The position numbers and the translations under genes were made by a program. A DNA stretch of 64,000 nucleotides from an uncultured Gammaproteobacteria bacterium (GTDB lineage: Bacteria; Patescibacteriota; Patescibacteriia; Magasanikbacterales; UBA922). The stretch covers positions 20,790-84,789 of the forward strand of contig CAYJXK010000001.1 in the NCBI GenBank assembly GCA_964374115.1. The letters are read 5' to 3'. This document shows, piece by piece, positions 15,439-61,196 of this stretch; the stretch's first letter is position 1; every line of letters begins with the position of its first letter. The notes beneath the pieces were generated by a model that saw nothing but the letters and a program-made list of their open reading frames with translations, was not told where the DNA came from and did not search any database.

Positions 15439-15473
15439 GGAGAGCGCGTCAGACACCGAAACTCGCTATGAGT
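15439..15473 (+). repeat. Copy 1 of a 35-nt conserved intergenic element GGAGAGCGCGTCAGACACcGAAACTCGCTATGAGT.
   Basis: 34/35 identical to 39772..39806. Degenerate copies of the 3' half lie at 60968..60982 (inverted) and 61157..61174. Confidence 0.6.
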
Positions 15474-15522
15474 CCAATGATTTCATTCTATGATAGATTC
15501 TTCAGGAGGCCGTTTGAACCTC

Positions 15523-15690
15523 ATGGCCATCGGAAATTTTCTTCGTTTTCTTCTCATCATCATTCCTCTTGTATTAGTGCTACTGTATCTTCCGCCCATT
15601 TTTCGCCAGTGGTATCAACAATTGCAACCTGTATTCGCTCTGACAAATTCTTTCTCTCCAAAAGAATTGCAAAAATTTTTACAAGAATAA
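15523..15690 (+). CDS. Candidate small hydrophobic peptide (55 aa, one TM helix).
   Basis: ATG preceded by AGGAGG about 10 nt upstream. Sequence MAIGNFLRFLLIIIPLVLVLLYLPPIF... A TATGAT -10-like hexamer lies at 15489-15494. No homology could be assessed. Confidence 0.3.
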   Translation: MAIGNFLRFLLIIIPLVLVLLYLPPIFRQWYQQLQPVFALTNSFSPKELQKFLQE

Positions 15691-15713
15691 CATGGCGTTC
15701 GCGTTTGCCAGAG

Positions 15714-15741
15714 GTGAACGCCTCTGTGAGAGGCACACGCG
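15714..15741 (+). promoter_or_regulatory. Second copy of the 28-nt hairpin motif GTGAACGCCTCTgTGAGAGGCAcACGCG, 20 nt upstream of the htrA ATG. It is preceded by a second hairpin GGCGTTC...GAACGCC.
   Basis: Same as the previous feature. Confidence 0.5.
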
Positions 15742-15761
15742 AAAATTCTACATAAGAATAT

Positions 15762-17027
15762 ATGGCATCTCATGAATCACCCGAGATAGCATCATACACA
15801 CGCCGCGCTCTTGCGACCGCGCTTGTTGTGGGTGTTCTCGCGGGCGGTGGCGGGGGAATTCTTGCCGGCATGCTGGTGTCCCAAGGCAAACTTTCTTTGA
15901 AAATTCCTCAATCAGAATCAACAGGAACATTACAACAAACCCAGTATTCTGATGAAGAAACAGCCACGATTGATGTCGTCGCGAAAGCCAACCCCGCGGT
16001 GGTGAGTGTGGTCATTTCCAAAGAACAAGGAAACGTTCCACAGGGCGTGGAATTTTTTCCGTTCGATGATTTTTTCAGTCCAGGATTTCCATTTCGTATT
16101 CAAGTTCCAGAACAGTCGAAGCCAAAGGACAAAGATGATCAGAAATCGGCACTTCAGCGTATTGGTGGAGGAAGCGGTTTCATTATTGAGTCTGACGGTC
16201 TTATTGTTACCAACAAACATGTCGTTGATGATGAAGAGGCGGTGTATACCATTGTCCTCTCGGGAGGAGAGGAATATGAAGCGCAGGTCATTGCCAAAGA
16301 CCCGATCCTCGATATTGGCTTGCTCAAAATTGAAGCAAAGAATTTACCCACGCTCCCGCTTGGAGATTCCGATAGCATCGCTCTTGGCCAATCAGTGATC
16401 GCGATAGGCAACGCGCTCGCAGAGCTTGGCAACACGGTTACCCGAGGAGTCGTGAGCGGCATCAATCGGCGGGTAGAGGCAGGCGATGGACGCGGGCAGA
16501 CCGAAGTACTCGAAGAGGCCATTCAGACAGACGCCGCGATCAATCAAGGAAATTCTGGTGGGCCGCTCTTAAATCTCGCGGGGCAGGTCATTGGCATTAA
16601 TACAGCCGTTTCAAGTCGCGGACAGCTGATTGGATTTGCGATCCCGATCAATAGCGTGAAACAGACGATCAATAGCGTTCGAGAATACGGAAAAATAATC
16701 CGGCCATGGCTTGGAGTACGGTATCAACCAGTGACACCGCGTCTCTCTGAACTCAACAATCTTTCTGTCACATATGGAGCTTTGGTGGTGCGTGGAAATA
16801 GTCCGGAAGAGCTTGCAGTGATTCCGGGTTCTCCTGCAGACAAAGCAGGATTGGTAGAAAACGATATTATTTTGGAAATCAATGGGCACAGGCTCGAAGA
16901 CAAAGACTCACTTGGAAAACTGATCGCAACATTTGCTGTTGGCGAGACTATCCCATTGAAAATTCTTCGTAAAGGAAATGAAAAAATTGTGGAGGTGACG
17001 CTCGCGGAGTTTCCTGTGGATGATTGA
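15762..17027 (+). CDS. htrA: HtrA/DegP-family periplasmic serine protease with a C-terminal PDZ domain.
   Basis: N-terminal TM anchor and a trypsin-like domain carrying GNSGGPLLN. PDZ domain (LVVRGNSPEELAVIPGSPADKAGLVENDIILEINGHRL). Confidence 0.9.
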   Translation: MASHESPEIASYTRRALATALVVGVLAGGGGGILAGMLVSQGKLSLKIPQSESTGTLQQTQYSDEETATIDVVAKANPAVVSVVISKEQGNVPQGVEFFPFDDFFSPGFPFRIQVPEQSKPKDKDDQKSALQRIGGGSGFIIESDGLIVTNKHVVDDEEAVYTIVLSGGEEYEAQVIAKDPILDIGLLKIEAKNLPTLPLGDSDSIALGQSVIAIGNALAELGNTVTRGVVSGINRRVEAGDGRGQTEVLEEAIQTDAAINQGNSGGPLLNLAGQVIGINTAVSSRGQLIGFAIPINSVKQTINSVREYGKIIRPWLGVRYQPVTPRLSELNNLSVTYGALVVRGNSPEELAVIPGSPADKAGLVENDIILEINGHRLEDKDSLGKLIATFAVGETIPLKILRKGNEKIVEVTLAEFPVDD

Positions 17028-17040
17028 GCATGACGAATCT

Positions 17041-18474
17041 ATGAATAAACGAACCAAAATTGTTGCAACGCTTGGCCCTTCATCAGAGACATCTGATGTC
17101 ATAAAACAGATGGTCGAGGGAGGAATGAACATCGCGCGGCTCAATTTTTCTCACGGAACATACGACAATCATTTACTTCTTATTGAGAGAATTCGTGACG
17201 TAGAAAAAACGTCTGGCCAGTGCATTGGCATTCTTCAAGATATCCAAGGTCCAAAGATTCGGATTGGAGCGCTAGAAAGCCCTCGTGTCCTTGAAAAAGG
17301 AGACGACGTCATTTTTGATACTTCTTCGGAAGTGCAGGGTTCCCACATTCCTCTGGATTTTTCCGATCTTCATCAGTATGTACACTCTGGCGATCGATTG
17401 TTTCTCTGTGATGGCAACATCGAAACGCGGATTACTCGTGTTGAGGGGACGAACATATATGCCGAGGTGCGTGTGGGCGGCGAGATTATCTCCCACAAAG
17501 GCATCAATGTGCCGGATACATCACTTCCTGTTCGAGTGCTTACAGAAAAAGACAAACAAGATATTCGTTTTGGAGTAAAAAATGGCGTTGATATGATCGC
17601 GCTTTCTTTTGTGCGGAATGCGAAAGATATTTCTGATGCGCGCGCATGGATAGAGAGTATAGAAAAAGAAGAAAACATTTCAGGACAGCCTCCCATTCGA
17701 TTGATCGCAAAGATTGAACGCAAGGAAGCAGTCGAAAACATGACAGAGATTCTTGAAGTCGCCGATGGCATCATGATCGCGCGAGGAGATCTGGGGATTG
17801 AAATTCCTGACGCAGAAGTCCCTATTGCGCAAAGGAATCTCATCGATGTAGCGCTTCGGGCAGCGAAACCTGTGATTGTCGCGACTCAGATGCTCGATTC
17901 CATGCAAGCAAATCCTCGGCCCACACGCGCCGAAGTATCTGACGTTGCGCACGCTGTTATGGATCACACGGACGCAGTAATGCTCTCGAATGAAACAGCA
18001 ACAGGCACCTACCCGGTCGACGCTGTGCGTATCATGGGAGAAATTATTGAACAAACAGAAAAATCAGTATATGACAATTTGCCTCTTCGCGATATACATA
18101 GCCATGGAGAGATTTTAGGAGACGTGATGAGCGAGTTGACGCGGCTCCTCGGAGATGATATCAAGGCAAAGGCGATTATCACAGCGTCTTTCTCTGGAGA
18201 TATCGCACGACATATCAGCCGATATCGGCCAGAGATGCCGATTGTGGCGGGGACAGAGACGCTTCGGGTTTGTCATCAGCTCAATCTTTCTTGGGGAGTG
18301 GTGCCCGTGCAACTTCTTCCATGTGATACCGTCGAAGTATTAAAAAAAGGAGCAATATCGTATATAAAAAATCACCAGCTTGGGAAGAGCGGTGATCAGG
18401 TGATTGTTGTGTCAGGAAATCCGGTCGGTGATGAAAAGCATGTGAATGTTCTTGAGGTTGTGCATGTGACATGA
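17041..18474 (+). CDS. pyk: Pyruvate kinase.
   Basis: MNKRTKIVATLGPSS, MNIARLNFSHGT and MIARGDLGIEIP motifs. Start placed at the ATG at 17041, after the htrA stop. Confidence 0.9.
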   Translation: MNKRTKIVATLGPSSETSDVIKQMVEGGMNIARLNFSHGTYDNHLLLIERIRDVEKTSGQCIGILQDIQGPKIRIGALESPRVLEKGDDVIFDTSSEVQGSHIPLDFSDLHQYVHSGDRLFLCDGNIETRITRVEGTNIYAEVRVGGEIISHKGINVPDTSLPVRVLTEKDKQDIRFGVKNGVDMIALSFVRNAKDISDARAWIESIEKEENISGQPPIRLIAKIERKEAVENMTEILEVADGIMIARGDLGIEIPDAEVPIAQRNLIDVALRAAKPVIVATQMLDSMQANPRPTRAEVSDVAHAVMDHTDAVMLSNETATGTYPVDAVRIMGEIIEQTEKSVYDNLPLRDIHSHGEILGDVMSELTRLLGDDIKAKAIITASFSGDIARHISRYRPEMPIVAGTETLRVCHQLNLSWGVVPVQLLPCDTVEVLKKGAISYIKNHQLGKSGDQVIVVSGNPVGDEKHVNVLEVVHVT

Positions 18475-18500
18475 TGGGAGCCGGACGGGACATCGGCTAT

Positions 18501-18530
18501 GGTAGAGACGCATTGCAATGCGTCTCTACC
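18501..18530. repeat. Perfect 30-bp palindrome GGTAGAGACGCATTGCAATGCGTCTCTACC between the convergent pyk and small-peptide genes.
   Basis: 15+15 nt self-complementary with no loop and no flanking U-tract on either strand. Confidence 0.7.
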
Positions 18531-18549
18531 TGCCCTGCCCCGGTCCGGT

Positions 18550-18699
18550 CTAGCCTTGGATAGCGATTTTTCTCAGGACGGCGGCGACCGCGATGAAAGC
18601 GATCACCAAGACGAGTATGAGGACGATCAGACATCCACAGCCGCCTGTGCCCTTCGCACTCCATCGCCCGAGAAAGAACCCAATCAGAAATTCCCACAT
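18550..18699 (-). CDS. Small membrane peptide (49 aa). Absent from the ORF track, which lists only ORFs of 60 aa or more.
   Basis: Translates as MWEFLIGFFLGRWSAKGTGGCGCLIVLILVLVIAFIAVAAVLRKIAIQG. AAGGAG sits 5 nt upstream of the ATG. A TTGACA-N16/17-TATATT promoter lies further upstream on the same strand. Confidence 0.45.
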   Translation of the reverse strand: MWEFLIGFFLGRWSAKGTGGCGCLIVLILVLVIAFIAVAAVLRKIAIQG

Positions 18700-18753
18700 G
18701 TGCGCTCCTTACGCATGAGGAAACACCTGTCCGTACAGTTCACGGAACGATAT

Positions 18754-18781
18754 AATATAGCACAAAAAAAGGGATTGTCAA
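18754..18781 (-). promoter_or_regulatory. Near-consensus sigma70-type promoter (TTGACA-N16/17-TATATT) driving the small minus-strand peptide gene.
   Basis: Minus-strand reading: tTTGACAatcccttttttttgtgcTATATTat, then AAGGAG and ATG. Confidence 0.5.
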
Positions 18782-18790
18782 ACTACGACT

Positions 18791-20083: not shown

Positions 20084-20133
20084 AGCCCATCTCAAAAACA
20101 TAAAAATAAGTCCGAAGAAAGTATTACAAGACT

Positions 20134-22375: not shown

Positions 22376-22478
22376 CGTCTGTTACGTCGAAATGAGATAA
22401 TGCGGGTATTAAAATTATGAATGTGGGTCGTCTAGAAGACGACATGAAGAAAGTGAAGTCACTGGTTGGATTGGCATA

Positions 22479-23633: not shown

Positions 23634-23649
23634 GTGAAGATGGGTCTTA

Positions 23650-28086: not shown

Positions 28087-31000
28087 ATGCCCGATGAAAT
28101 TCATAATTTATCCGAAGCCGAGATGGCGGAGAGGAGGATGAAAATTGATGCCACTGGCTCTACAGCAGAACCAGAACAGGCAGAATCATTGCCGTCGGAT
28201 TTGGAAGGAAAATCTTGGCTGATTTTGGAATTTATCAATAAAGATCCGGATTATTTTTTTGAACGATGCAAAAAATTTCATAAAAAAATAGCGATGGAAC
28301 TGCTGGAGTCAGTTGCAGATGGTTCATCCAGTGATACAATTGAAGAATTTTTATTATTACACCTTGATCGTTTTACTGGCCTAGACAAAGAAGTCGCGCT
28401 GATGTTTTTCAACTTTCATAATTTTGACGAACTTAGAAAACAACTCATCGAATATGTTTTTGCCCACCCGGAACATTTTTTTGGTTTTGCTTTGGATAAA
28501 GAATTGGCAATATACCTGTTGAATCAGCACATGTATCACTTTGAGTTAGCCGGTGATTCACTTTTAATTGCACATATTGATCGTTTTACCGGATTAGACA
28601 AAGAGATAGCTTTGCTATTGGTGCGTCAGAAAGAAAAAAAAAGCGTAGAGTACGTTTTGACACACCCGGAGTACTTTTTTGGATTCTCACTTGATAAAGA
28701 AGTAGTCTTAGGATTGTTGGGGAATAAGCTTTCTTTTTCAAAGGGAAAATTATTACTCAAGTTTTTTGATCATTTCAACAATCTGGACAGAGACGTTGCT
28801 TTAGCGATTTTAAAAAATACGACGGGCACAGAACAGATGAATTGCGCCGAGTTTATTCTTTCTCATCCCGAACATTTTGCCGGGCTAACATTTGATCAAG
28901 AATTCCTCTTGCTGATTCATGGTTTAGGTAAGGAAATGGACGTGTTGTGTGATTATATTGATAAATTTTCTGGCCTTGACAGAGAGGCTGCCATAAACTG
29001 TCTGTGGCGGGGCGGCAAAAAATTAGTCACCTATGTTTTTTCTCATCCGGACCATTTCACTGGTTTTGCCCTTGATAAAAAACTGGCGCTCGAAATCACC
29101 TGCCGGTTTGAATATCTTGAACCCTTTGTTGATAATTTTTTGGGATTGGATAAAGACGTTGCGATGAATTGGCTTGGGTGGCGTTCTCAAAGAGATGATT
29201 ATAATAAGACATACGCTGAATATGTCTTATCCCATCCTGAACGTTTTGCTGGGTTCGTTTTAGATGCCAATGTAGGGGATTTAGCGATTTCGTACGACGA
29301 TATAATCTGTAGAACAGAAAAAGTTACACAGCGTATTTTCAAATTTCTTGGTCATTTGGCTGGAGTAAAGCTGAGTAAAGATTTAGCCAAAAAATTTATT
29401 AATAATCATGACACTCTTCAGTATGTTTTAGATCATCCTGAACAATTTGGGGGGTTGGACAAAGAGTGGGCATTTGAACTAATCAAAAAAAGTCGAGTGA
29501 AGATTAGTAACGGTAAGGAAGAGGGTATAGACGGTGCAGAGTATGTTCTATCACACCCTGAATTGTTTAACGGGTTTAGTTTTAATAGTGAGTTGGCGTT
29601 GGCGCTACTCGCCGACGATATAGGTGCAATTGCCCTAGCTAAACATATCGACAAATTCATTGGTTTGAGTAAGGATGTTGCGCTTGGATTGTCAAAATAT
29701 AGATCATATAGAGTCGGATTTAAATGGCAGGATTTAATAATTGCCCATGTTGATAGTTTTGTAGGTTTAGACCAAGAGATCGCGGTTGCTTTAATTAGTG
29801 ACTTTATAGATAATAAAAAGGAAGGTGAAAAATATTTTGCGTATCTCTTTTTGAATCCGCAACACTTTGGCGGTTTAGGCAAGTCCATGGCAATGAAATT
29901 GTTAGCCGATCGAAGGAGTGATTTACTTCTAAAGTATATTGATAATTTCACCGAATTGGACAAAGAAGTGGCACTAGGGTTGCTTCGTACCCGTAAAGAA
30001 GGGACTCTATATGTCCTTTCCCATCCAGAACATTTTTCCGGTTTTGTTTTTGATAAAGAGGTCGCTTTAATTTTAGCTGAGGTAGGCGAGGGTGTGGCCC
30101 ACATAACCGAAGATCAGCTAGCGCAATTTGTTGGCCTAGACAGAGAAGTAGCTGAAGGCTGGCTTTCGGTGCGCACCTCGTTGCCACTGGCTGAGTATTC
30201 CATCTCTCACTCCGAGCGATTTGTTGGCTTTAAGTTGGATAAAAAAACAGCGGACATTGCCTTCTCGGCAGGGCATTGGCAATTAGTCAGGAAATACATC
30301 GATCAATTTAGTGATCTGGATCAACAGACAGCGGAGAAATTTTTTAAGCATGGTGATGACGAGGTAGCCCGGTATGTCCTTGCTCATCCGGATAATTTTG
30401 TCGGACTGAATTTGAATAGGGAGTTAGCTTTGGTTCTTCTTGATACCAAACATGCGGGCGCACTTTCCGATTTTATCCCCCAGTTTACCGGTTTAGACCA
30501 TGGGATAGCCATAAAGTTATTTGAAACAAAAAAGGCTATCGAAAATACCATCAAGAATGCTGATTGTTTTTCCGATTTTGTATTAGGGGAAAGCACTGCT
30601 CAGGTGTTACTGGATTTAGGCCAGCCAGAATTGTTGATAAAATATATGAGCCAGTTCACCGATTTGAATGCTAAATATCTTCACCTTGATCAGCCATTTC
30701 GTGAATATTTTTTGAGTATTTTATCCAGTGGGCAGATTCCAGTGCTTACGCAAGAGGATTATCATTGTCAAGAAGAGTATCATTACATACCAAAGGAGAT
30801 TGACGATACCGAAGATGAAGGGGGCGGAGCTATGAGGGAAAATTTTTTGGAAGAAATTTTTCAAGCCAACCGGGTAGCGGCATTTAATCATACTAAAGAT
30901 TTAAAACTCCCTTCCAAACAATTGTTTTCGGTTGCCCATACATATAATTCAAAAGATGATTTCGAGATATACAAAATGCTCATGACCAACGGATATCTTG

Positions 31001-33093
31001 TCAAGGATATTCTTGAATACAGTTGGGTTTTAAAAAATAAAGAAATAGCCACATTCCCTTCAGAAGATAAATTTCCGTGTGATAAACCTCGCGGTGCTCA
31101 AGAATCTTGGCTTGCGCGCCACGCCTTCCATATCCCCGAAGGTTGGCAGACAAAACGTTTGGGCAGTATTATTTACAATCGTCTTCATACGGGAATCGAC
31201 ACTAACCTTCACGACGCCACGTATTGGCTCAAAGATTTCGACGTTCCTGGTTCTGCCCATGGCACAACATACAAAGATGAGAACGCGGAATTACTTCTTT
31301 TATTGTCGACAATGGATACGCCCGAGAAGATGCGCGCCCGTTTGCCGTCAAATCCCAATCGTTACCGTGAGTTATTTGCGTCGTCAGCCGGCGAGTTAGT
31401 CTATCAAGCCCTATTGCCCTTGGCAAAAGAAGGCCCGGTGGCGATAGAACAGTTGAAATCGAGCATGCGTGACATTCTAAGCCAGTTGGATTCTTCAGAA
31501 GATCAGCAACGACAACTCAAAATCCCTCTACCTAATCTTCTGGAAGAAGTAGAGAACCTGTTAACTAATCTGGCCGCCCGTGCAGAAGAAGAACATAATG
31601 ATATACCAGGGCTCCTCCAACACTTAAAAATTGTCAGCCAAAATCGTACCAGATATATTGATGAAGCTCAGACGTGGGTGCAAACCCATCAATCCACGCC
31701 TCGTTCCCTTCTTCAGGTTGCTTGGACTAATCGGCCTCTCGCTTTATCTGACGGTTGTGCCGATAATCCGCGAGCAATTAAACAGTGGGCTGATATAAAT
31801 ACCCTAAAATTTTCGGTTGCCGAAATGGAGAAAAATGGACGTTTACCAAAAAATTTTTCTATTTCTGATGTGAAAGCTTATACCCCCTGGCTCAACGAAT
31901 TGGTTCGCTGTTACTCCGGTGAAACCGCCGTTCAAACTGTAGCACTTCTCAAAGAGGAGTTTAACCCTGAATATTATATTCCACCCGCAAAAATTGATCT
32001 CGACCACGGTTGGGTCGGGGAAGTTCTCCCCAAGAATGATCCGCGTGGTTTTACGATTGGGTATGATACTGGTTGTTGTATGACGCTGGGTGGAGCGTCC
32101 GAGAGCTGTATTCATGCCGGCTACACTGATCCCTCGTACGGTTTTTTCGTCCTTTACCGCGATGGTCGGCTGTGCGCACAATCTTTTCTGTATACCAACA
32201 CGGGAAAGTCACCCGGAACGATTATCTGCGACAATATTGAAGCTAACGAAGGACGTGATCAGGAAGAGGTTTTAAGACGCTATCAGGAATTTTTTCGAAA
32301 ATATATTCGCCAAGAGCTGCAACGTGACCCGAGTAGTCCTTTTGTTGAGATCAACGTAGGAATCGGTTACACTGAAGTTGGGCTTGATTCGCTTGAGTCT
32401 GCTGATCAGATCCCTATGCCGCTAAAGGAAGGCGAACATATTTATTCGGATGCTAGCGTACAGAAAAAATTATTTAAGCTGGACAATGAAGAAATTGAAA
32501 AAATAAAAGCCGAACATGCCGCCGCTCCGAAAAAACGTCCTCGTCTGCAGAAATTTGAAAACGCCCAACCAATTGAACACCTAAAGCCCAAGACATTTGT
32601 TGATTATCCGGTACCTGAACAGGCCCCCATACTAGCCGAAATCGAAGCGGCGACGTATCCCGAAAACCAGCGTCGCGGCATTACGTTCTTTCAAGAGGAA
32701 CTGGCGCAGTCAGTGGGGAAAAATCTTTTGGTTATTGAACAGCGCGAAGGAAATGAAATTCCGGTCGGGTATGCGCTCGTGAAGGAAATAGACTCGCCCG
32801 ATTCTGGAAAGGTTATACAGATCTCTGAAATTGCCATTGTCGCCGATGCCCAGAAACAAGGATTTGGCAAAGCGTTATTAGGAAGCATTTTAGCAGGAAA
32901 TAGAAGAGGGCCGAGTAATTTTATTGATTTTCACATTAGGGACCAAACGTTTTTCAATGCGTTAAGGCGCAATGAAAAACTAATCACTGAACAGGGATTT
33001 CATGTTATGAGTGACACTATCCAAGGCGACGAACATCTATTACGGCTAAAGAGAAATATCCGACCTGCTACGGGAGAAGTGGATGATGAGTAA
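28087..33093 (+). CDS. Giant (1668 aa) tandem alpha-helical-repeat protein. About 17 alternating ~40-aa repeats are followed by an unassigned Cys-containing central region and a C-terminal GNAT-like N-acetyltransferase domain.
   Basis: Repeat unit pairs h(I/V)DxFxGLDKE(V/I)ALxLL with YVLSHPEhFxGFxLDKE(V/L)ALxLL (aa ~85-830). The C-terminus VGYALVKEI...ISEIAIVADAQKQGFGKALLGSIL matches GNAT motif A. The gene is visibly AT-richer than its neighbours and uses TTA/CTA Leu codons that are rare elsewhere in the window. Confidence 0.75.
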   Translation: MPDEIHNLSEAEMAERRMKIDATGSTAEPEQAESLPSDLEGKSWLILEFINKDPDYFFERCKKFHKKIAMELLESVADGSSSDTIEEFLLLHLDRFTGLDKEVALMFFNFHNFDELRKQLIEYVFAHPEHFFGFALDKELAIYLLNQHMYHFELAGDSLLIAHIDRFTGLDKEIALLLVRQKEKKSVEYVLTHPEYFFGFSLDKEVVLGLLGNKLSFSKGKLLLKFFDHFNNLDRDVALAILKNTTGTEQMNCAEFILSHPEHFAGLTFDQEFLLLIHGLGKEMDVLCDYIDKFSGLDREAAINCLWRGGKKLVTYVFSHPDHFTGFALDKKLALEITCRFEYLEPFVDNFLGLDKDVAMNWLGWRSQRDDYNKTYAEYVLSHPERFAGFVLDANVGDLAISYDDIICRTEKVTQRIFKFLGHLAGVKLSKDLAKKFINNHDTLQYVLDHPEQFGGLDKEWAFELIKKSRVKISNGKEEGIDGAEYVLSHPELFNGFSFNSELALALLADDIGAIALAKHIDKFIGLSKDVALGLSKYRSYRVGFKWQDLIIAHVDSFVGLDQEIAVALISDFIDNKKEGEKYFAYLFLNPQHFGGLGKSMAMKLLADRRSDLLLKYIDNFTELDKEVALGLLRTRKEGTLYVLSHPEHFSGFVFDKEVALILAEVGEGVAHITEDQLAQFVGLDREVAEGWLSVRTSLPLAEYSISHSERFVGFKLDKKTADIAFSAGHWQLVRKYIDQFSDLDQQTAEKFFKHGDDEVARYVLAHPDNFVGLNLNRELALVLLDTKHAGALSDFIPQFTGLDHGIAIKLFETKKAIENTIKNADCFSDFVLGESTAQVLLDLGQPELLIKYMSQFTDLNAKYLHLDQPFREYFLSILSSGQIPVLTQEDYHCQEEYHYIPKEIDDTEDEGGGAMRENFLEEIFQANRVAAFNHTKDLKLPSKQLFSVAHTYNSKDDFEIYKMLMTNGYLVKDILEYSWVLKNKEIATFPSEDKFPCDKPRGAQESWLARHAFHIPEGWQTKRLGSIIYNRLHTGIDTNLHDATYWLKDFDVPGSAHGTTYKDENAELLLLLSTMDTPEKMRARLPSNPNRYRELFASSAGELVYQALLPLAKEGPVAIEQLKSSMRDILSQLDSSEDQQRQLKIPLPNLLEEVENLLTNLAARAEEEHNDIPGLLQHLKIVSQNRTRYIDEAQTWVQTHQSTPRSLLQVAWTNRPLALSDGCADNPRAIKQWADINTLKFSVAEMEKNGRLPKNFSISDVKAYTPWLNELVRCYSGETAVQTVALLKEEFNPEYYIPPAKIDLDHGWVGEVLPKNDPRGFTIGYDTGCCMTLGGASESCIHAGYTDPSYGFFVLYRDGRLCAQSFLYTNTGKSPGTIICDNIEANEGRDQEEVLRRYQEFFRKYIRQELQRDPSSPFVEINVGIGYTEVGLDSLESADQIPMPLKEGEHIYSDASVQKKLFKLDNEEIEKIKAEHAAAPKKRPRLQKFENAQPIEHLKPKTFVDYPVPEQAPILAEIEAATYPENQRRGITFFQEELAQSVGKNLLVIEQREGNEIPVGYALVKEIDSPDSGKVIQISEIAIVADAQKQGFGKALLGSILAGNRRGPSNFIDFHIRDQTFFNALRRNEKLITEQGFHVMSDTIQGDEHLLRLKRNIRPATGEVDDE

Positions 33094-38872: not shown

Positions 38873-39742
38873 ATGGCATTAGGCAAAGGACTCAGCTCTC
38901 TTCTTCCACAACAAAAAGGCATGCGGATGACCTTGCATAAAGAAACCGGACATGCGAAGGACGGAGATCGCATTTGGAATATCCCTATTTCGGAGATTGT
39001 CCCGAATGCGGACCAACCACGAAAAGTATTTTCTCACCAGGAGCTTGAAGATCTTGTTGGTTCGATCAAGTTGCACGGCATTCTTCAACCAATTCTTGTC
39101 ACAGAAAAAGATGATGGCGGATACGAGCTTATCGCAGGCGAGCGCCGGCTTCGGGCTGCCGAGATTGCAGGACTCCCCACGGTTCCTGCTATCGTCCGCA
39201 CAGCGACAAAACAAGACAAGCTTGAACTTGCCCTCATTGAAAATATTCAGCGTCAAGATTTGAATCCGATAGAAGAGGCATTTGCCTATGGCCGGTTGGT
39301 TGAAGAATTTGGATTGACGCAACAAGAGGTGGGGGACAGAGTGGGAAAGAGCCGTCCGTATATCGCAAATACGATTCGACTCCTTGGGCTTCCAGAACCG
39401 ATCCAAAAAGCGCTCATGGACGGAGCGCTGAGTCAAGGCAAAGCCAAAGCAATTCTAAGTCTCAAAAGTGAAGAGGATCAAATGAAAGTATTTCATTCTA
39501 TGATGGGGGAGGCTATCACAGTACGCGATGTCGAGCAGGCAGTTGCCTCAAAAGGAGCGCGATCACGAAAAGGGTTTATTCGGCAAGACGCGAATATTTT
39601 GGCGTATGAACACATGCTCGAAGAACGGCTCGGGGTCAAAGTACACATGACGCTCCGAGGAGGGCGGGGGACAATTCTCATCTCATTTTATTCGAAGGAA
39701 GAATTAGAGCGTGTGATTCGGACGATGGTTAATGCGCATTGA
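38873..39742 (+). CDS. parB: Chromosome partitioning protein ParB/Spo0J.
   Basis: ParB box LIAGERRLRAAEIAGL plus an HTH domain. Confidence 0.9.
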   Translation: MALGKGLSSLLPQQKGMRMTLHKETGHAKDGDRIWNIPISEIVPNADQPRKVFSHQELEDLVGSIKLHGILQPILVTEKDDGGYELIAGERRLRAAEIAGLPTVPAIVRTATKQDKLELALIENIQRQDLNPIEEAFAYGRLVEEFGLTQQEVGDRVGKSRPYIANTIRLLGLPEPIQKALMDGALSQGKAKAILSLKSEEDQMKVFHSMMGEAITVRDVEQAVASKGARSRKGFIRQDANILAYEHMLEERLGVKVHMTLRGGRGTILISFYSKEELERVIRTMVNAH

Positions 39743-39771
39743 TCATTGAACTCATATCATTTTTCCTCTCA

Positions 39772-39806
39772 GGAGAGCGCGTCAGACACAGAAACTCGCT
39801 ATGAGT
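39772..39806 (+). repeat. Copy 2 of the 35-nt element GGAGAGCGCGTCAGACACaGAAACTCGCTATGAGT, located between the convergent parB and rel genes.
   Basis: Same as the previous feature. Confidence 0.6.
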
Positions 39807-39810
39807 TTAT

Positions 39811-41292
39811 TTACTTTTTCGGTAAGACCGATTTGATCCATTCCGTAATGGTTTTTTTTTGTTGTGATTTGATGTGGCCGCGCGCGGTATGGGTTTTGAC
39901 AAATTGGAGCCAATCTTGATTCGGTCCCTTTCTACTTTTGTCCACAATAATCTCTACCACATCGCCATTTTTGAGTTCGGTGCTGAGGCTCGACATTTTT
40001 TCATTGATCAGCGCGGCAGAACATCGGTTGCCGATCTCGGTATGGATATGATAGGCAAAGTCGACCGGGGTTGCTCCTTCCGGCAGATCAATCACATCTC
40101 CTTTTGGTGTAAATACAAAAATACGACTCTGGAGAAAGTCCACTTTCATTTCTTCGAGGTCAGAGAGTTTTGTGAGAATATCTTTTTGAATTTCTGCTAA
40201 TTCTTTTGCCCAGGCAATATCTCGTTTTGGCAATCGTCTTCCGTCTTCGTGATAACGCCAATGAGCCGCAGTTCCATAGAGCGCCTCTTCATGCATCTCA
40301 GGCGTGCGGATTTGGAATTCAATACTCTCTCCTTCTTCACTAAATACCGTGGTGTGAAGGGATTGATAGTGATTCGGTTTGGGTTGTGAAATATAGTCTT
40401 TAATACGACCTTTGAGAGGTTTCCAGATTTTATGAAGAATCCCAAGCGCTCCGTAGCAATCTGCGACGCTCGGAATTACAATCCGAATCGCGACGAGATC
40501 GTATACTTTTGCGACTTGTTGATCTTTTCGGATGAGTTTTTGGTACAAGCTAAAGAGTCGTTTGCTACGCCCCTCAATGGATATGATGGGAATGTGAGCG
40601 TTTTCGATTTCTTTTTTTGCTCGACGTTGCATGTCGTGAAGAAATTTTTCTTTTCCTTTCATTTTTTCGTCACGGATCTGTTTTGTCTCATCGTATTCTT
40701 TTGGGTACACATACTGAAACGACAGATCTTCAAGCATACCTTTCATTTCATCCATACCGAGACGATTCGCGATTGGGGCGTATATTTCTAGGCTCTCGAG
40801 CGCAATCCGGTATTGTTTTTGTGGGGGAAGCGCGTCAAGGGTTTGAAGATTATGGATACGGTCCGCAAATTTGATAATCATGACACGGACATCTTCTGCC
40901 ATGGCAACAAACATTTTTCGTAAATTTTCAAGATATCTCTCTACGCCACGATATTTTAGTTTTCCCAATTTGGTAATTCCCCCAACCATGGAAGCAATTT
41001 CAGAACCGAATTCTTTTTCCACGTCTTCGAGCGTTCTATCCGTGTCTTCTGGAACATCATGGAGAAGTGTTGCCGCGATAATGAGAGGATCAATTTTCAT
41101 GTCTGCCAAGAGATCAGCGGCAGAGAGAGGATGCATGATGTACGGTTCCCCAGATTTTCGGATCTGTCCTTTGTGCGCCTCGGCGGCAAAATCGTAGGCC
41201 AAACGAACCAATGTTGTATCCGCGGTTTTAAGGTAGGTTCCAATCTTTTTAATAAGGGATTCAATTGTTGGTTGTTTTTGGTTCTGTACCAT
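39811..41292 (-). CDS. rel: Bifunctional (p)ppGpp synthetase/hydrolase Rel, short form with HD, synthetase and TGS domains and no ACT domain.
   Basis: HD motif LLHDVPEDT, synthetase motif YQSLHTTV, TGS segment FVFTPKGDVIDLPEGATPVDFAY. Confidence 0.9.
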   Translation of the reverse strand: MVQNQKQPTIESLIKKIGTYLKTADTTLVRLAYDFAAEAHKGQIRKSGEPYIMHPLSAADLLADMKIDPLIIAATLLHDVPEDTDRTLEDVEKEFGSEIASMVGGITKLGKLKYRGVERYLENLRKMFVAMAEDVRVMIIKFADRIHNLQTLDALPPQKQYRIALESLEIYAPIANRLGMDEMKGMLEDLSFQYVYPKEYDETKQIRDEKMKGKEKFLHDMQRRAKKEIENAHIPIISIEGRSKRLFSLYQKLIRKDQQVAKVYDLVAIRIVIPSVADCYGALGILHKIWKPLKGRIKDYISQPKPNHYQSLHTTVFSEEGESIEFQIRTPEMHEEALYGTAAHWRYHEDGRRLPKRDIAWAKELAEIQKDILTKLSDLEEMKVDFLQSRIFVFTPKGDVIDLPEGATPVDFAYHIHTEIGNRCSAALINEKMSSLSTELKNGDVVEIIVDKSRKGPNQDWLQFVKTHTARGHIKSQQKKTITEWIKSVLPKK

Positions 41293-43700: not shown

Positions 43701-45053
43701 TCATTTTGTCAATGTTCCCCGAAGTTCGCCGCTCAGAAACATTGATCCTGTCACGAGAATAATTCCATGCGTTTTCTTTTGTTTTTTTGTGCTCCATGTG
43801 TATGCGTCTGATGGATCAATGAAGCGCCGATAAGAGGATCGTGGGAGTTGTCGTTCAAAAAGTTTTTTTACTGTGGAGAGATCAGCGATACGACGGAAAG
43901 GATTCATCGTATTGCGAGAGATGGCAACACTGCGTGGCCGAAGCTTTGTAAGCAGCCGGATCATAGAGCGAAAGTCTTTATCTTCAGAAAATGAGACAAT
44001 AAGGTGTGTGGATTTGGGAAGTTTTTTTTTCTTTTGTAGGTCAAGAATCGTCCTCACGGTCGCGCGCATTTTATCCGGATTATGCGCTCCGTCAAGAATC
44101 ACCATAGGTTTTTTCGATACGATTTCACAGCACAGTGGTTGCCATGCTCCGCGAAGGCCATCGTGTATCGAAGCGCTCGGAATGCCAAGACTTTTGGCCA
44201 CGTCAATCACAAGACACGCGTTTTGCACCTGGTGGATGCCAGTGGCACGGATGGTATAGCGATGTCCTTTGTGCGTGAACGTCGTGCGATCACGTGTTTG
44301 CGAGAGCATCTGGAATTCGGGACGAATGACCATCAGCCTGGCGTGTTTCTTTGCGCATATATTTCTGATTACAGAAAGCACGCGGGGATTTTGTTCCATA
44401 GTCCACACAGGGCATTGAACGGTGATTATTCCTGCTTTTTCTTTTGCAATGGCTGTTTTGGTAGAGCCAAGAATTTCTGTATGATCAAGACCAATCGTGG
44501 TGATAATCGCGCATTCTTTTTTTGGGATGACATTGGTCGCATCAAATTGTCCACCCAATCCCACTTCCATCACAGCCCAATCCACACCATTTTTGGCAAA
44601 ATAGGTCAGCGCCATAGCGGTCGTGACTTCGAAATACGATGGCACCCCAAACGGACTCTGCTCGAGACAGAGGGTGAGCGCTTTCTTCATTTCGTGAACC
44701 AGAGAAGAAAAATCTTTTTCAGAAATTATTTCATTGTTGATAGACCAATTTTCTCGAATCGTGGTTGGATATGGAGAGATGAAGAGTCCTGTTTTTTTAT
44801 GCGCGTTCACGAGGATAAAAGAGAGATACCGACACACCGATCCCTTGCCGCTTGTGCCCGCGACATGAATAAAGTGTGAGATTTTTTTTTCTGGATTTCC
44901 GAGAAGATCAAGAAGAAATTGTGTCCGTTTGAGATAGAGTGCGTTCCATGTTCGATCATGAAGATATTCCGGTCTCTGGATATTGAAAAGAGAGAGGAGA
45001 AATTGTTCGGCGTTGTTATGTGTGAATGCCACAAGAGTGTGATGAGAGCCCAT
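43701..45053 (-). CDS. folC: Folylpolyglutamate synthase / dihydrofolate synthase (Mur ligase family).
   Basis: P-loop HVAGTSGKGS and DGAHNP motif (VILDGAHNPDKM). Confidence 0.8.
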   Translation of the reverse strand: MGSHHTLVAFTHNNAEQFLLSLFNIQRPEYLHDRTWNALYLKRTQFLLDLLGNPEKKISHFIHVAGTSGKGSVCRYLSFILVNAHKKTGLFISPYPTTIRENWSINNEIISEKDFSSLVHEMKKALTLCLEQSPFGVPSYFEVTTAMALTYFAKNGVDWAVMEVGLGGQFDATNVIPKKECAIITTIGLDHTEILGSTKTAIAKEKAGIITVQCPVWTMEQNPRVLSVIRNICAKKHARLMVIRPEFQMLSQTRDRTTFTHKGHRYTIRATGIHQVQNACLVIDVAKSLGIPSASIHDGLRGAWQPLCCEIVSKKPMVILDGAHNPDKMRATVRTILDLQKKKKLPKSTHLIVSFSEDKDFRSMIRLLTKLRPRSVAISRNTMNPFRRIADLSTVKKLFERQLPRSSYRRFIDPSDAYTWSTKKQKKTHGIILVTGSMFLSGELRGTLTK

Positions 45054-45206
45054 CTCAAAAATAATTTTGAGCCAGTTTCATGGACGTTTTGAGCGAAAAA
45101 AGTGAAAATCGAGGAGGCATACTGGTAGCATGACGACGAGATATGAATTTTTTGCGGCCAAAACGGACGGAACATGAGCCATGAATTATTTTTGAGATGG
45201 GCTCTC
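45044..45206. repeat. Perfect 22-bp inverted repeat pair (GAGAGCCCATCTCAAAAATAAT at 45044-45065; ATTATTTTTGAGATGGGCTCTC at 45185-45206) bracketing the 119-bp folC-dprA intergenic spacer.
   Basis: Seen directly. The left arm overlaps the folC start codon and the right arm overlaps the last codons of dprA. Confidence 0.7.
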
Positions 45207-46331
45207 GTGACTGAGGACGTACATCATACCACCGATATTGCGTACCTTTCCTTTCATTTCCATAAGCGTCATGGTGCTCATCACGCGCGAGCTCCCGAGG
45301 CCTGATTGGTGAATGATTTCATCCATGTGCAAAGGTTCTCTCGAGAGGAGAGGAAGGAGTGCCGCTTCTTCTTCTGATTCAGGATGAATAGAAGGCGCGA
45401 GTGTTTGTTTTATCTCAGAGAGGTTCAACACTTGGAATATATCTTCCGCCGACGTCACAAGGGTTGCCCCCATTTTGATGAGCGTATTTGTGCCACCCGA
45501 TGTCTTTGACGTGATATTGTGTGGGACGGCAAAGACTTCCCGATTATTATCAAGCGCGGATCGGGCGGTAATGAGCGCTCCGGATTTTTCTCCGGCTTCC
45601 ACAACCAGCGTGCCTAAAGAAAGCCCTGCGATAATCCGATTGCGTTCTGGAAAGCTATAGGCCGTGGGAAGGAATCCTGGCGGATATTCAGCAATCACCG
45701 CGCCGTCCGCCGCAATAATTTTTTCTGCGAGAGGTCGATGCACGGCAGGGAAAATCGTCCATCGGTCAATGCCAGAACCAAGAACCGCTATGGTGTTTCC
45801 ACCAGAGGCAAGTGTTGCCGCATGGGCGCATCCATCGATCCCGAGCGCAAGGCCGCTCACAATCGTAAGGCCAGCATGCACGAGCGCAGTCACAAGCTCT
45901 TCCGTGACTTGCTTGCCATAAGGAGAAAATGATCGAGTGCCAACGACAGCAAGCATCGATCCTTTGGCGTCCAAGTTTCCTCTCACAAACAAACAGATCG
46001 GCGGATCATAGGTTTGTTTGAGGAGCGCCGGATACCGAGAGTCTGACAGCGGAATCACGTCTATTCCATGCGCGATAAGCTGTTCTTCGATATTTTTTTC
46101 TATGCATTCATGATCTCTCCAGAAAACGAATTGTTCAATAATATTTGATTCCCAGAGCAATGTTTTTTTGAGTGTATCACTTTTGGCCGACCATGCATCA
46201 TCAAGGGAAAGGCGAGAGGCAATGAGGTGTTGATATCGTCGAAATGTCATTTTTGGAAAATAGGAGAGAAGCGCTTCTTTGGGGAGCATAGCAATGAGTT
46301 TACTCGTCCATCTGCTGTACCGCTTTCCCAA
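45186..46331 (-). CDS. dprA: DNA processing protein DprA (Smf).
   Basis: Rossmann-like core LAVVGTRSFSPYGKQVTEELVTALVHAGLTIVSGLALGIDGCAH. The start may be an internal Met, because the track ORF overlaps pth by 32 nt. Confidence 0.85.
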   Translation of the reverse strand: MGKRYSRWTSKLIAMLPKEALLSYFPKMTFRRYQHLIASRLSLDDAWSAKSDTLKKTLLWESNIIEQFVFWRDHECIEKNIEEQLIAHGIDVIPLSDSRYPALLKQTYDPPICLFVRGNLDAKGSMLAVVGTRSFSPYGKQVTEELVTALVHAGLTIVSGLALGIDGCAHAATLASGGNTIAVLGSGIDRWTIFPAVHRPLAEKIIAADGAVIAEYPPGFLPTAYSFPERNRIIAGLSLGTLVVEAGEKSGALITARSALDNNREVFAVPHNITSKTSGGTNTLIKMGATLVTSAEDIFQVLNLSEIKQTLAPSIHPESEEEAALLPLLSREPLHMDEIIHQSGLGSSRVMSTMTLMEMKGKVRNIGGMMYVLSHESPSQK

Positions 46332-54343: not shown

Positions 54344-54353
54344 AGCTGTTTGG

Positions 54354-56311: not shown

Positions 56312-56322
56312 AGTTACTGACT

Positions 56323-57543: not shown

Positions 57544-57615
57544 ACTGTTTCATTTCAGCGCTTGAACACTTTGCTCAAGTGCTGGAGTGTTCGAGTGTTC
57601 AGGCACTCGGGTGAT

Positions 57616-58326
57616 TTACGCTCGCGTTCGGCGCGGCATGCGAATTTTTTTCATCACCGTTTCGAGGCTTGTGAGATCATGCCGCGCTTGCCGCTCATGT
57701 TTGTTTGCTTCGTGTTTGATCATGAGAACCCCAATCGTGTAGGCGGGGAAAAGATTTACACCCGGAATGAGCTCGGCAATCAGCACAATAATGATTCTTC
57801 CCAAGAGTTTCCGCACAATGAGACGCTTGAGCCATATCCCTTGGAACCACGTGAGTCGGATGAGCGCGGCGGTGACAATAATATTCATCATCATCGCGAG
57901 GAAGCCGAGGTCAACGAAAATCGTAAGATCCCATACATCTTTGAGCGCGGCAAGGCACATCGCGATAATGAAGGAAGTAAATGATCCTTGCATAATTTTC
58001 TGCCGAAGGTGTTCGCCTATGTGTTCGCCCAATTGCTGCGCGCTTTTTGGAAGATTGGAAGAATCCATTTCATGCTGTTTGGCGATGTCTTTGAGTTCTT
58101 TTGGCATTTCTTGATTCTTCTGTCCATCACTACTCTTTTGGGGAGGATTCCTACGCTCTTTTTGTTGTTCACGTCGCAGGTTATTCGCCCACTGGTGTTC
58201 CCGTTTTTTTTGTTCTTCTTGTTGCTCTTGTTGCTGATCTTCTTCTCCTTTAGACGGATTTTCTGGTTCGATTCCTGGATCGAAAGAAAGAGGTGGCGTG
58301 TTTGGGATGTTTGAGGTGTTCGGCAT
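57616..58326 (-). CDS. Hypothetical membrane protein with a Gln/Glu-rich N-terminal region.
   Basis: EEDQQQEQQEEQKKREHQ low-complexity region followed by about 4 TM helices. Confidence 0.45.
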   Translation of the reverse strand: MPNTSNIPNTPPLSFDPGIEPENPSKGEEDQQQEQQEEQKKREHQWANNLRREQQKERRNPPQKSSDGQKNQEMPKELKDIAKQHEMDSSNLPKSAQQLGEHIGEHLRQKIMQGSFTSFIIAMCLAALKDVWDLTIFVDLGFLAMMMNIIVTAALIRLTWFQGIWLKRLIVRKLLGRIIIVLIAELIPGVNLFPAYTIGVLMIKHEANKHERQARHDLTSLETVMKKIRMPRRTRA

Positions 58327-58367
58327 ATGGCCTATTGGCTATGAACGATTGGCTATCGGCATACACG

Positions 58368-60902
58368 CTACACAAATCGAAATCGTCCATCTTTTTTTTG
58401 CAGTGTAACTTTTTCTTTTTTCATCGGCCGTTCTTTATAGAAGTGTACTGCCTCGTGGAGCGCTCGCGCAATGGTGCGTTCGATATGACGCGCTCCCGTG
58501 TCAATCGTGTATCCTTCTTTGGATATCGCTTCTATCGCGCTTTTGTGCACGCGCATGGGGAGAGGAATCGTGGCGCCAAGTGCTTGCAAAAGAAGAGCGG
58601 ATTGTTTTTCAATGATGGCGTGAATGTCTTTGGTTTCAAATGGAGAAAAGATGCAGACGCGATCAATACGGGCTAAAAGCGATTGGCCGAGCTCCTCTCG
58701 AATTTTGTCAAGAATCAACTCGTCACGAAACAAATGCGGTCGAGAACCAATCGAAGATTCTTCAGAAAATCCGAGACCGGCTTGTTTATAATACTCAGCG
58801 CCAATATTGGATGTAAGCACAATCACATTGTGGTGAAAGAGAATTTTTTTGCCGCTACTATCAGTGAGCTCTCCTTCGTCAAGGATTTGCAAAAGCAAAC
58901 GCCGTACATCCGGGTGTGCTTTGTCTATTTCATCAAAAATAATGAGAGCATGCGGGTGTTTTCGGATGCGTTCGATGAATGAATTGCGGTCTTTGTATCC
59001 TACATATCCGGCAGGGGAGCCGAGAAGTTTTGACACCGCGTGACCCTCGCTGAATTCGCTCATGTCGAGGCGAATGCAGGTATCGGGGTCTAAAAATAAT
59101 TCTCGGGCCAGTATTTTTGCTAATTCCGTTTTCCCCACTCCGCTCGGGCCTACGAACAAAAAGGACGCGCGCGGTCGAGGCCGGGTAGACAGACCAAGAG
59201 ACGATTGTTGCAGTGTGGTGACCACTCCGTCTATCACATGATCCTCTCCAATGATATGAGCAAGAAGCGTGCTGCGAATCGCGGCAATACGATCCCAGTC
59301 AGAGCTCATAAGCTGTTCTTCGCGTACCCCCAGCCGATCTGCCAACACCCGCGCCACGTCTGCCTCTCGTACGGTCGCGACCGACCGTCTCTTTTTTCCG
59401 TGTTTCACGCGTGTCAGTTTCGCGATTGCTTTCTCTGCTGTCTCGATTTTTTCTTTCCATCGTATCGCGTCTTCGAGGTGTTCTCCGCGAATGGCCTGTG
59501 TTTTTTGTTTTTCATAGGCTTCCTTTTCTCCCATGAGTCCTCGGAGTACCACATCCGTATCATCTGTTGCATGTGCCGAGGCGACTAAGGCAGATGCTTC
59601 GTCTAGGAGATCTATTGCTTTGTCCGGAAGATAATGATCGTGGATGTATTTCGTACTCAATGTCACTGCTCCTTGAATTGCGGATTCGTCAATCGTAATA
59701 GAATGGAATGTTTCATAATTTTTGGCCACGCCAGAAAGAATACGGATTGTTTCTTCGACTGTGGGTTCCGCAACATCGATGCATTGAAAGCGACGCTCGA
59801 GAGCTGGATCAGTTTGAATATATCGTTTGTGTTCATCAATCGTGGTTGCGCCAATGCAGTGAATCACCCCACGCGCAAGCGCGGGTTTCAGGATATTCGC
59901 GGCATCCATGGTGCCACTGTTCGATCCCGCGCCGACCAGATTGTGTATTTCATCAATGAAGAGAAGAATATCTGGTCGGTCGGCGATTTCATCAATCAGT
60001 TGTTTCAGACGCCCCTCAAATTCTCCGCGATAGATGGTGCCGGCAATAAGAAGCGGGAGATCAAGCGCCAGGAGTTTTTTGCCTCGCACATGCATCGGCA
60101 CGTCGCCTTCGAGAATGCGTTTTGCGAGTCCCTCGACAATCGCGGTTTTTCCCACGCCTGGTTCGCCAACCAAGAGTGGATTATTTTTTTTGCGTCGGGC
60201 AAGAATGTGCACCATACGATCGATTTCTTTTTCTCTTCCCACTACAGGATCAATCGTCTTTTGCACTGATGGGTCTGTGAGATTGGTCGTAAAAAATTCA
60301 AGAGCAGATGGGAGTGAGGGAGCGCTCCGCTTCTTCTTTTTTTCTTTGGCCACCGTTCCTTCAGGAGAGTGATGCGCGTGCTCCCGCACCTCGTCAATCG
60401 CATTGCTCAAATCCTCGACTGCGGGAAAATGGCTGGTGTTGGTAAAAATGGTATTCACTTGTTCGAGGATATCGGCAATGCGAATATGCAACTTCGCGAT
60501 GCATTCATGAAGATAATCGTCTCCTTCCTGAAGAAGCGCATGGAGGAGATGCTCAGTACCCACATAGGTATGTCCATGTTCATAGGCGACGAGCACTGCT
60601 TTTTCGATTACCTTTTTCGCGTGCGCGTTCAATTCAATCGCCATGAGCGTGTTGTAGGTGTCGGGACGCATTTTTTTTTCATGTCGCTCACGGCGTTTCA
60701 TCACATCAAGAACATGTTCGGCATTGCATCCTACTTTTTTGAGTATTTCTGCTCCCACAGATCCTTTTTCTTCTGCAAGCGCAAAGAGAAGATGGAGCGG
60801 AGTGACAGTCGAGGACTGTACATTGGCGGCAACCGTCATGGCCCGGCCAATAGTGTTTTTGAGATGCGTTGACAATTTATCTAAGAATTGAGTGGGTTGC
60901 AT
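58368..60902 (-). CDS. clpC: Clp-family AAA+ chaperone (ClpC/ClpB-type), with an N-terminal Clp_N domain, two AAA modules and a short middle domain.
   Basis: Clp_N repeats. AAA1 motif GEPGVGKTAIVEGLA and AAA2 motif GPSGVGKTELAKILA. The short linker (~70 aa) favours ClpC over ClpB. Confidence 0.85.
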   Translation of the reverse strand: MQPTQFLDKLSTHLKNTIGRAMTVAANVQSSTVTPLHLLFALAEEKGSVGAEILKKVGCNAEHVLDVMKRRERHEKKMRPDTYNTLMAIELNAHAKKVIEKAVLVAYEHGHTYVGTEHLLHALLQEGDDYLHECIAKLHIRIADILEQVNTIFTNTSHFPAVEDLSNAIDEVREHAHHSPEGTVAKEKKKKRSAPSLPSALEFFTTNLTDPSVQKTIDPVVGREKEIDRMVHILARRKKNNPLLVGEPGVGKTAIVEGLAKRILEGDVPMHVRGKKLLALDLPLLIAGTIYRGEFEGRLKQLIDEIADRPDILLFIDEIHNLVGAGSNSGTMDAANILKPALARGVIHCIGATTIDEHKRYIQTDPALERRFQCIDVAEPTVEETIRILSGVAKNYETFHSITIDESAIQGAVTLSTKYIHDHYLPDKAIDLLDEASALVASAHATDDTDVVLRGLMGEKEAYEKQKTQAIRGEHLEDAIRWKEKIETAEKAIAKLTRVKHGKKRRSVATVREADVARVLADRLGVREEQLMSSDWDRIAAIRSTLLAHIIGEDHVIDGVVTTLQQSSLGLSTRPRPRASFLFVGPSGVGKTELAKILARELFLDPDTCIRLDMSEFSEGHAVSKLLGSPAGYVGYKDRNSFIERIRKHPHALIIFDEIDKAHPDVRRLLLQILDEGELTDSSGKKILFHHNVIVLTSNIGAEYYKQAGLGFSEESSIGSRPHLFRDELILDKIREELGQSLLARIDRVCIFSPFETKDIHAIIEKQSALLLQALGATIPLPMRVHKSAIEAISKEGYTIDTGARHIERTIARALHEAVHFYKERPMKKEKVTLQKKDGRFRFV

Positions 60903-60930
60903 ATAACCTATTGTCTATATGATGAGGGGT

Positions 60931-60959
60931 AGTATATACTCTTTGTATTCTCAATTCAA
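60931..60959 (-). promoter_or_regulatory. Candidate clpC promoter (TTGAAT-N17-TATACT on the minus strand).
   Basis: Minus-strand reading cTTGAATtgagaatacaaagagtaTATACTac, about 30 nt upstream of the clpC ATG. Confidence 0.45.
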
Positions 60960-60990
60960 GTAGTATGAACTCATAGCGAATTATCCCTCC

Positions 60991-61133
60991 GCATGGTCAC
61001 GATTCCTTTTTTCTTCCCTCCAAAATCTGCACGCGCAAAACTCAAACCGCATCATAGGCACCCACAGCGTTCTCTACACGCCTGTTTTGCCACTGAGCAT
61101 TGGAGGCGAAAAAAAAAGGAATCGTGACCATGC
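60991..61133. repeat. Perfect 22-bp inverted repeat pair (GCATGGTCACGATTCCTTTTTT at 60991-61012; AAAAAAGGAATCGTGACCATGC at 61112-61133) with a 99-bp spacer in the clpC/pmm divergent intergenic region.
   Basis: Seen directly. Nested inside degenerate inverted copies of the ACTCGCTATGAG motif. Confidence 0.7.
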
Positions 61134-61196
61134 TTCATACAGCGGATACTGCATGGAAACTCGCTATTGAGTTTTATAGCAAACAACTGCTGACAG

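Follow-up and report, generated by a model that had tools for sequence, protein, structure and literature searches.

Why a sequence of 35 nucleotides should recur almost unchanged in the intergenic DNA of a compact bacterial genome is the question raised by the 64,000-nt stretch of contig CAYJXK010000001.1 analysed here (assembly GCA_964374115.1; hereafter the window). The sequence in question, GGAGAGCGCGTCAGACAC(C/A)GAAACTCGCTATGAGT, was found at 15439-15473 and 39772-39806 with a single difference between the copies (34/35 identical), and no match was obtained in 100 dinucleotide-preserving shuffles. An initial annotation of the same DNA had reported both copies, together with two degenerate occurrences of the 3' half near clpC and pmm, and had offered a dispersed repeat, a transcription factor site or a small-RNA target as possible explanations. 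We conclude with high confidence that the 35-mer constitutes the right-terminal portion of elements in a family of MITEs (miniature inverted-repeat transposable elements), which are non-autonomous relatives of ~ 960-bp insertion sequences (IS) of the IS5 family carried by Magasanikbacteria and neighbouring lineages of the candidate phyla radiation (CPR). This reading follows from the presence of the same ends on IS5-family elements, taken together with terminal inverted repeats, 3-bp target-site duplications (TSDs) and the occurrence of several copies.

Structure of the repeated element

The sites reported by the initial annotation could all be recovered. In addition to the two near-identical 35-mers, the inverted half-site (60968-60982, minus strand) matched at 14/15 positions, and the direct half-site (61156-61174, plus strand), which lies 22 nt 5' of the pmm ATG, carries a 1-nt insertion. 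Pfam searches upheld the gene contexts of the full copies, the first lying after nrdR and the second in the 68-nt gap between the convergent parB and rel genes. The statement that the sequence has no obvious self-complementarity proved wrong, since AAACTC-N5-GAGTTT is a small palindrome and every 35-mer or half-site is an arm of a larger element with inverted repeats, to whose recognition this missed self-complementarity is the key. What had been taken for two degenerate copies are the opposite ends, left and right, of one 208-bp element; the window accordingly contains three elements, designated A, B and C, rather than four sites. The left arms of all three had been overlooked (Table 1).

The terminal inverted repeats of A, B and C are imperfect, 18 bp long and close to GAACTCATAGCGAGTTTC ... 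GAAACTCGCTATGAGTTC. Left ends agreed with the 18-nt consensus at 14-15 positions, and right ends at 17 of 18 (A and B) or at all 18 with a 1-nt insertion (C). Every copy is bounded by an exact 3-bp TSD, and all three are located in AT-rich intergenic DNA. Inner inverted repeats were identified in A (15296-15327/15404-15435) and in C (60991-61016/61108-61133, 96% complementary), and both copies fold as long hairpins (-66.5 kcal/mol, z = -4.3 for A; -88.2 kcal/mol, z = -9.3 for C), with the internal boxes TTTTTTCTT..CTCCAAAA and their complement common to the two. The fold of B was no better than that of shuffled sequences (z = -1.3). This shortest copy can be aligned with the two extremities of a copy of the A type, with ~ 143 bp of the interior missing, and evidently derives from such a copy by internal deletion. 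None of the three copies has coding capacity, and an overlapping small open reading frame (ORF) had no Pfam match.

A fourth, partly decayed copy was detected at L026:5231-~5372, ~ 2.4 kb past the right end of the window. Its left end is GAACGTAGAGCGAGTTTC, and the internal boxes described above are present, including TTCCTTTTTCTTCCCTCCAAAA; its degenerate right end abuts the stop codon of a 507-aa gene. Three copies are thus dispersed over 64 kb, and at least four over ~ 70 kb.

Evidence of insertion

Comparison with two relatives that keep the divergent clpC-pmm arrangement supports insertion of C at this site. The spacer between the two genes is 88-100 nt long in one relative (L138-L140) and 63 nt in the other (L141), and a TAGTATA box is common to the relatives and the window. 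In the window the spacer measures 294 nt; minus C and one copy of TAT it would be 83 nt, which falls within the short range seen in the relatives and indicates that C was inserted into a spacer that is otherwise short and conserved. At the second site, the stop codons of parB (39742) and rel (39811) are separated by 68 nt, of which B and its TSD make up 64; the two stop codons were therefore originally 4 nt apart. Furthermore, short-read assemblies of three samples (Logan contigs L146/L147 and L026) end inside the inverted repeat of C, at 61013 and 61130; assembly breaks are usual at repeats and hairpins.

The same ends on insertion sequences of other CPR genomes

The initial annotation had proposed a pattern search in related genomes, and this revealed the same ends both on IS and on non-coding elements of other CPR genomes. 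A genome collection (one genome per species) was scanned with the core motif GAAACTCGCTAT-N(0,1)-GAGT, which returned at least 111 loci. Among the matches listed, most were single chance matches in unrelated phyla, while 11 belonged to Magasanikbacteria, two to one metagenome-assembled genome (MAG) of the Patescibacteria group, one to a Peregrinibacteria MAG and one to an Uhrbacteria MAG. In the Magasanikbacteria MAG UBA10197, the ends were present on at least five contigs. A scan of viral contigs with the same motif gave 25 single matches, which is chance level.

At four loci of Magasanikbacteria and Peregrinibacteria genomes (L054, L052, L056 and L128), the motif directly follows the 3' end of an ORF whose product ends in ...FAWQDTYRKLVIRYEKLE...LAYSMINLR..GNSL, the stop codon being a TGA inside CTATGAGTTC. 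Complete IS were delimited at three of them: 968 bp in L054 (TSD AAA), 968 bp in L052 (TSD AAT) and 959 bp in L056 (TSD TTT). All three share the right end GGAAACTCGCTATGAGTTC, and their left ends are imperfect (GAGTTGATAGTG..., GAATTCATAGTG... and TAGCTCATCGTG..., respectively). Both elements scanned against Pfam, L054 and L056, carry two ORFs, OrfA with DUF4096 and OrfB with DDE_Tnp_1 / DDE_Tnp_1_2. An A_AAA_AAG slippery site is present where the OrfA and OrfB frames overlap in L054, and OrfAB fused by a -1 frameshift scored 111.8 bits against NF033580, the NCBIfam model of IS5 family transposases (cut-off 110), covering positions 13-256 of 258 in one stretch, with OrfA and OrfB each falling below the cut-off when taken separately. 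The slippery site and the match above cut-off were shown for L054 only.

Non-coding elements with the same ends were 48 bp (L055, L106), 61 bp (L082), 118 bp (L049), 152-156 bp (L116, L109, L098) or 205-210 bp (L045, L035) long, and their interiors differ. Exact 3-bp TSDs flanked 12 of 15 elements across genomes. As a control, motif matches were assessed for a partner end with identical flanks, which was found for 11/18 CPR matches as opposed to 1/94 non-CPR matches (among the matches listed). Two of these 11 CPR positives were spurious distant partners in L049, leaving nine genuine cases; the true partner in L049 lies 118 bp away, and its flanks match at only two of three positions.

A different interior was seen in L035, L045 and L116, consisting of inverted modules TGTCAT(C/T)(C/T)TG ... 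(A/G)ATGACA; judging from this arrangement, the shared ends have apparently captured unrelated palindromic cores.

Gene context and other repeats in the window

Coordinates of the three copies, their TSDs and the flanking genes are given in Table 1.

Table 1. MITE copies, target-site duplications and flanking genes in the window
Feature	Position	Strand	Remarks
NrdR	14759-15220		Pfam
TSD of A, AAT	15267-15269 (left), 15476-15478 (right)		
MITE copy A	15270-15475	+	206 bp; left end AAATTCATATCGAGTTTT (15270-15287), right end GAAACTCGCTATGAGTCC; contains the first 35-mer
HtrA-like protease	15762-17027		Pfam
ParB	38873-39742		Pfam
TSD of B, ATT	39745-39747 (left), 39809-39811 (right)		right copy overlaps rel stop codon by 1 nt
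MITE copy B	39748-39808	+	61 bp; left end GAACTCATATCATTTTTC (39748-39765), right end GAAACTCGCTATGAGTTT; contains the second 35-mer
Rel/SpoT	39811-41292	minus	Pfam
ClpC-like ATPase	58368-60902	minus	Pfam
TSD of C, TAT	60964-60966 (left), 61175-61177 (right)		
MITE copy C	60967-61174	+	208 bp; left end GAACTCATAGCGAATTAT (60967-60984), right end GAAACTCGCTATTGAGTTT
Pmm	61197-62576		Pfam
Reconstructed empty site (example)			...caagtagTATagcaaac...

Pmm places the host organism in Candidatus Magasanikbacteria, within the CPR, the nearest relatives being only 64-66% identical in this protein. Between MITE A and the HtrA-like gene lies a 66-aa ORF (15490-15690) with a hydrophobic, membrane-like segment and no Pfam match. 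Giant ORFs were noted at 28087-33093 (1668 aa) and 23-9115 (3030 aa). The former contains at least 9-11 tandem coding repeats at 28348-30422, with a period of mostly ~ 177-213 nt; tandem coding repeats of this kind are typical of CPR surface proteins.

Another inverted repeat, at 45039-45211, has 28-nt arms that are 93% complementary and 117 nt apart (-80.3 kcal/mol, z = -8.2). It is situated between dprA (45186-46331, minus strand) and a Mur-ligase gene (43701-45053, minus strand), its arms extending into dprA at the 3' end and into the ligase ORF at its annotated start. The repeat showed no similarity to the MITE ends, and no flanking direct repeat was seen by eye.

A second dispersed repeat, a 45-mer with 84% identity between its copies, is present at 10048-10092 and 15710-15754. 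Its 26-nt core, GAACGCCTCT-N-TGAGAGGCA-N-ACGCG, matches at 24/24 specified positions and contains a GCCTCT/AGAGGC hairpin; none would be expected by chance. The copies end 1 nt and 7 nt 5' of the ATG of a 376-aa protein (no Pfam match) and of the HtrA-like protease, respectively, and the repeat might represent a leader or promoter element common to the two genes. It was absent from all fetched loci.

Proposed origin and its weak points

The MITE reading implies a simple mechanism. The OrfAB DDE transposase of an IS of this kind would bind the terminal repeats and excise the element, integration would take place at staggered cuts 3 bp apart, and repair of these cuts would generate the TSD. Copies A, B and C, having no transposase of their own, would be cut and pasted in trans by the IS-encoded OrfAB; mobilisation of MITEs in trans is established behaviour of DDE insertion sequences. 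From B, the ~ 143-bp palindrome interior would subsequently have been deleted. The 34/35 identity between A and B would reflect membership of one recent subfamily and common descent, not selection on the sequence. Likewise, we infer that the long hairpins simply result from the inverted-repeat architecture and do not point to an RNA under selection. Probably the copies are near-neutral passengers, restricted to the small number of gaps tolerated by so compact a genome.

Several observations weigh against this origin. A tblastn search of the window with the OrfA and OrfB proteins of the IS returned nothing, and the sharing of ends with a transposase-encoding element was seen in related genomes only. 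Sequence specific to the A/B/C subfamily was matched nowhere else, which means that the parent of this subfamily was not found: neither the interiors of A, B and C nor, as part of them, the leftmost 17 nt of the 35-mer had a match in the 1.1 Mb of fetched loci or in a metagenome scan. More specifically, no fetched locus contained the left half of the 35-mer (GGAGAGCGCGTCAGACAC) when up to 3 mismatches were allowed, and the metagenome scan with AGCGNNTNNNNNCANNGAAACTCGCTAT gave three matches, all in coding DNA and without the GAGT tail, as expected of chance. The empty-site comparison was made between species 34-36% divergent in Pmm and not between strains. Finally, agreement of the left ends of A and B with the consensus is limited to 14 of 18 positions, which makes their present-day mobility doubtful.

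Alternative explanations

The folding of A and C far better than their shuffles is also what would be seen if these were cis-regulatory leaders or structured non-coding RNAs of one family, with a length of ~ 205 nt, a conserved closing stem and inner stems that covary between A and C. The inner arms of A and C indeed differ in sequence yet remain complementary, and C lies directly 5' of pmm. We nevertheless consider this explanation very improbable. Over the whole window, Rfam models at gathering scores recovered only three tRNAs, and nothing credible was obtained over A and C even at E<=10; a palindromic build is expected of any MITE; members of the family span 48-210 bp with unrelated interiors; and an RNA family does not explain why the same ends terminate transposase-encoding IS or why 3-bp target duplications are present. 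C is moreover absent from the orthologous clpC-pmm spacer of the relatives. This absence, together with the lack of a common class among the flanking genes (nrdR/htrA, parB/rel and clpC/pmm) and of an Rfam family, also leaves the small-RNA target or seed suggested initially unsupported, and the association with a particular gene class that was to be checked did not emerge.

The same two observations on flanking genes and the relatives' spacer speak against the proposed transcription factor site for stress genes. In its most specific form this would be a palindromic operator, AAACTC-N5-GAGTTT, acting on genes such as clpC and htrA, and it draws on the 6+6 palindrome at the core of the repeat and on the proximity of copies to clpC and htrA-like genes. 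The bare palindrome is not enriched in the window, however (six found vs 3.9 expected, allowing up to 2 mismatches), and the clpC-pmm region of the relatives holds only one match, with 3 mismatches and inside the clpC coding start. The stop codons on either side of B are convergent, a setting without any promoter, and an operator would leave 17 further conserved bases, the TSDs and the identity with IS ends unaccounted for, so that we regard it as extremely unlikely. No more credible is a repetitive extragenic palindrome (REP), or a bacterial interspersed mosaic element built from REPs (BIME), spread by a Y1 transposase of the REP-associated tyrosine transposase (RAYT) type, or else a bidirectional terminator hairpin. 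The copies are intergenic, palindromic and dispersed, and B lies between convergent genes, but REPs make no TSDs and are partnered by a Y1 enzyme, as opposed to the 3-bp TSDs and the ends of a DDE IS5-family element observed here. No terminator was predicted at A, B or C, and the fold of B is no better than that of shuffles. The "REP/MITE-like" label of the initial annotation was therefore half right: the MITE part is borne out by the inverted repeats, TSDs, copy number and IS5-family ends in related genomes, and the REP part is not supported, given the TSDs and the DDE parent.

Possible effects on clpC and pmm

A clpC-type promoter-like site on the minus strand (TTGAAT-17-TATACT, 60959-60931) is intact and lies 7 nt outside C. 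In addition, a plus-strand promoter candidate was identified upstream of C at 60911-60940, and no promoter-like site was detected by the scan within any of the three copies or between C and pmm. According to these predictions, transcription from the 60911-60940 candidate may run through C into pmm, which would give the pmm transcript a 208-nt hairpin leader.

A more far-reaching version of the MITE explanation would have an active IS5/MITE system moving between CPR phyla, with some copies co-opted by the host: C, situated between the divergent promoters of clpC and pmm, as an insulator or a hairpin leader, and B as a spacer or RNA 3'-end structure. The movement between phyla is suggested by near-identical IS ends in a Peregrinibacteria and a Magasanikbacteria MAG. 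We consider this version as a whole unlikely; if true, MITE activity and exaptation would for the first time have been documented in a streamlined, ultra-small CPR genome.

At least the last 120 nt of the IS are identical in L052 (Peregrinibacteria MAG) and L128 (Magasanikbacteria MAG). Both originate from one groundwater project (isolate names begin NC_groundwater), with the MAGs assigned to two CPR phyla, and by sequence this identity would indicate either recent horizontal transfer or cross-binning.

Implications

For annotation, the sites should be labelled as MITE copies and not as regulatory motifs or small RNAs. Such copies explain breaks in short-read assemblies of the host organism, and MITEs of this type fragment CPR assemblies. 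With regard to genome dynamics, CPR genomes are compact (~ 1 Mb, tightly packed), yet in the host genome at least four copies have been squeezed into minimal gaps within ~ 70 kb. Ends shared across Magasanikbacteria, Peregrinibacteria and Uhrbacteria MAGs could mark horizontal exchange or binning errors.

Comparison with known systems

The elements described here are ordinary selfish DNA, and MITEs with IS5-family ends are already well described. Our literature search on MITEs in CPR or Patescibacteria found no paper on the subject. Bacterial examples with IS5-family ends include BrickBuilt, MITEPgRS and MITE239/700 of Porphyromonas gingivalis (ends matching ISPg1/3/4/9), as well as the ATR element of Neisseria meningitidis, whose ends match ISNme1 (PMC4596501). 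Copies A, B and C resemble these in being short (50-1000 bp) and non-coding, in sharing terminal inverted repeats with an IS5-family element, and in having short TSDs, several intergenic copies and no transposase remnant. They differ in the end sequence GAACTCATAGCGAGTTTC and the interiors, which are unrelated, in their CPR host and in a TSD that is consistently 3 bp.

A counterpart of the putative parents is provided by the small two-ORF IS of the IS5 family, 860-890 bp long with a frameshifted transposase of ~ 250-265 aa, such as ISCaa8, ISCaa9 and ISCaa13 (PMC3196728). Like these, the putative parents are small (959-968 bp), with imperfect inverted repeats of ~ 18 bp, DUF4096 and DDE_Tnp_1 ORFs and a 3-bp TSD, whereas the window elements have no ORF. 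In size, two ORFs, -1 frameshift and 3-bp TSD, the putative parents would fit the small IS427/IS1031-like groups of the ISfinder scheme.

The Correia elements (Correia repeat enclosed elements, CREE) of Neisseria have ends of 26 bp and a TA duplication, and are not known to have a parent element. Similarly to A, B and C, they are MITEs of ~ 100-200 bp with inverted-repeat ends, located near promoters and gene ends and capable of forming long hairpins if transcribed. The end sequence of A, B and C is unrelated to theirs, and the TSD is 3 bp as opposed to TA; Correia elements nonetheless provide a model for how C could affect the expression of pmm or clpC.

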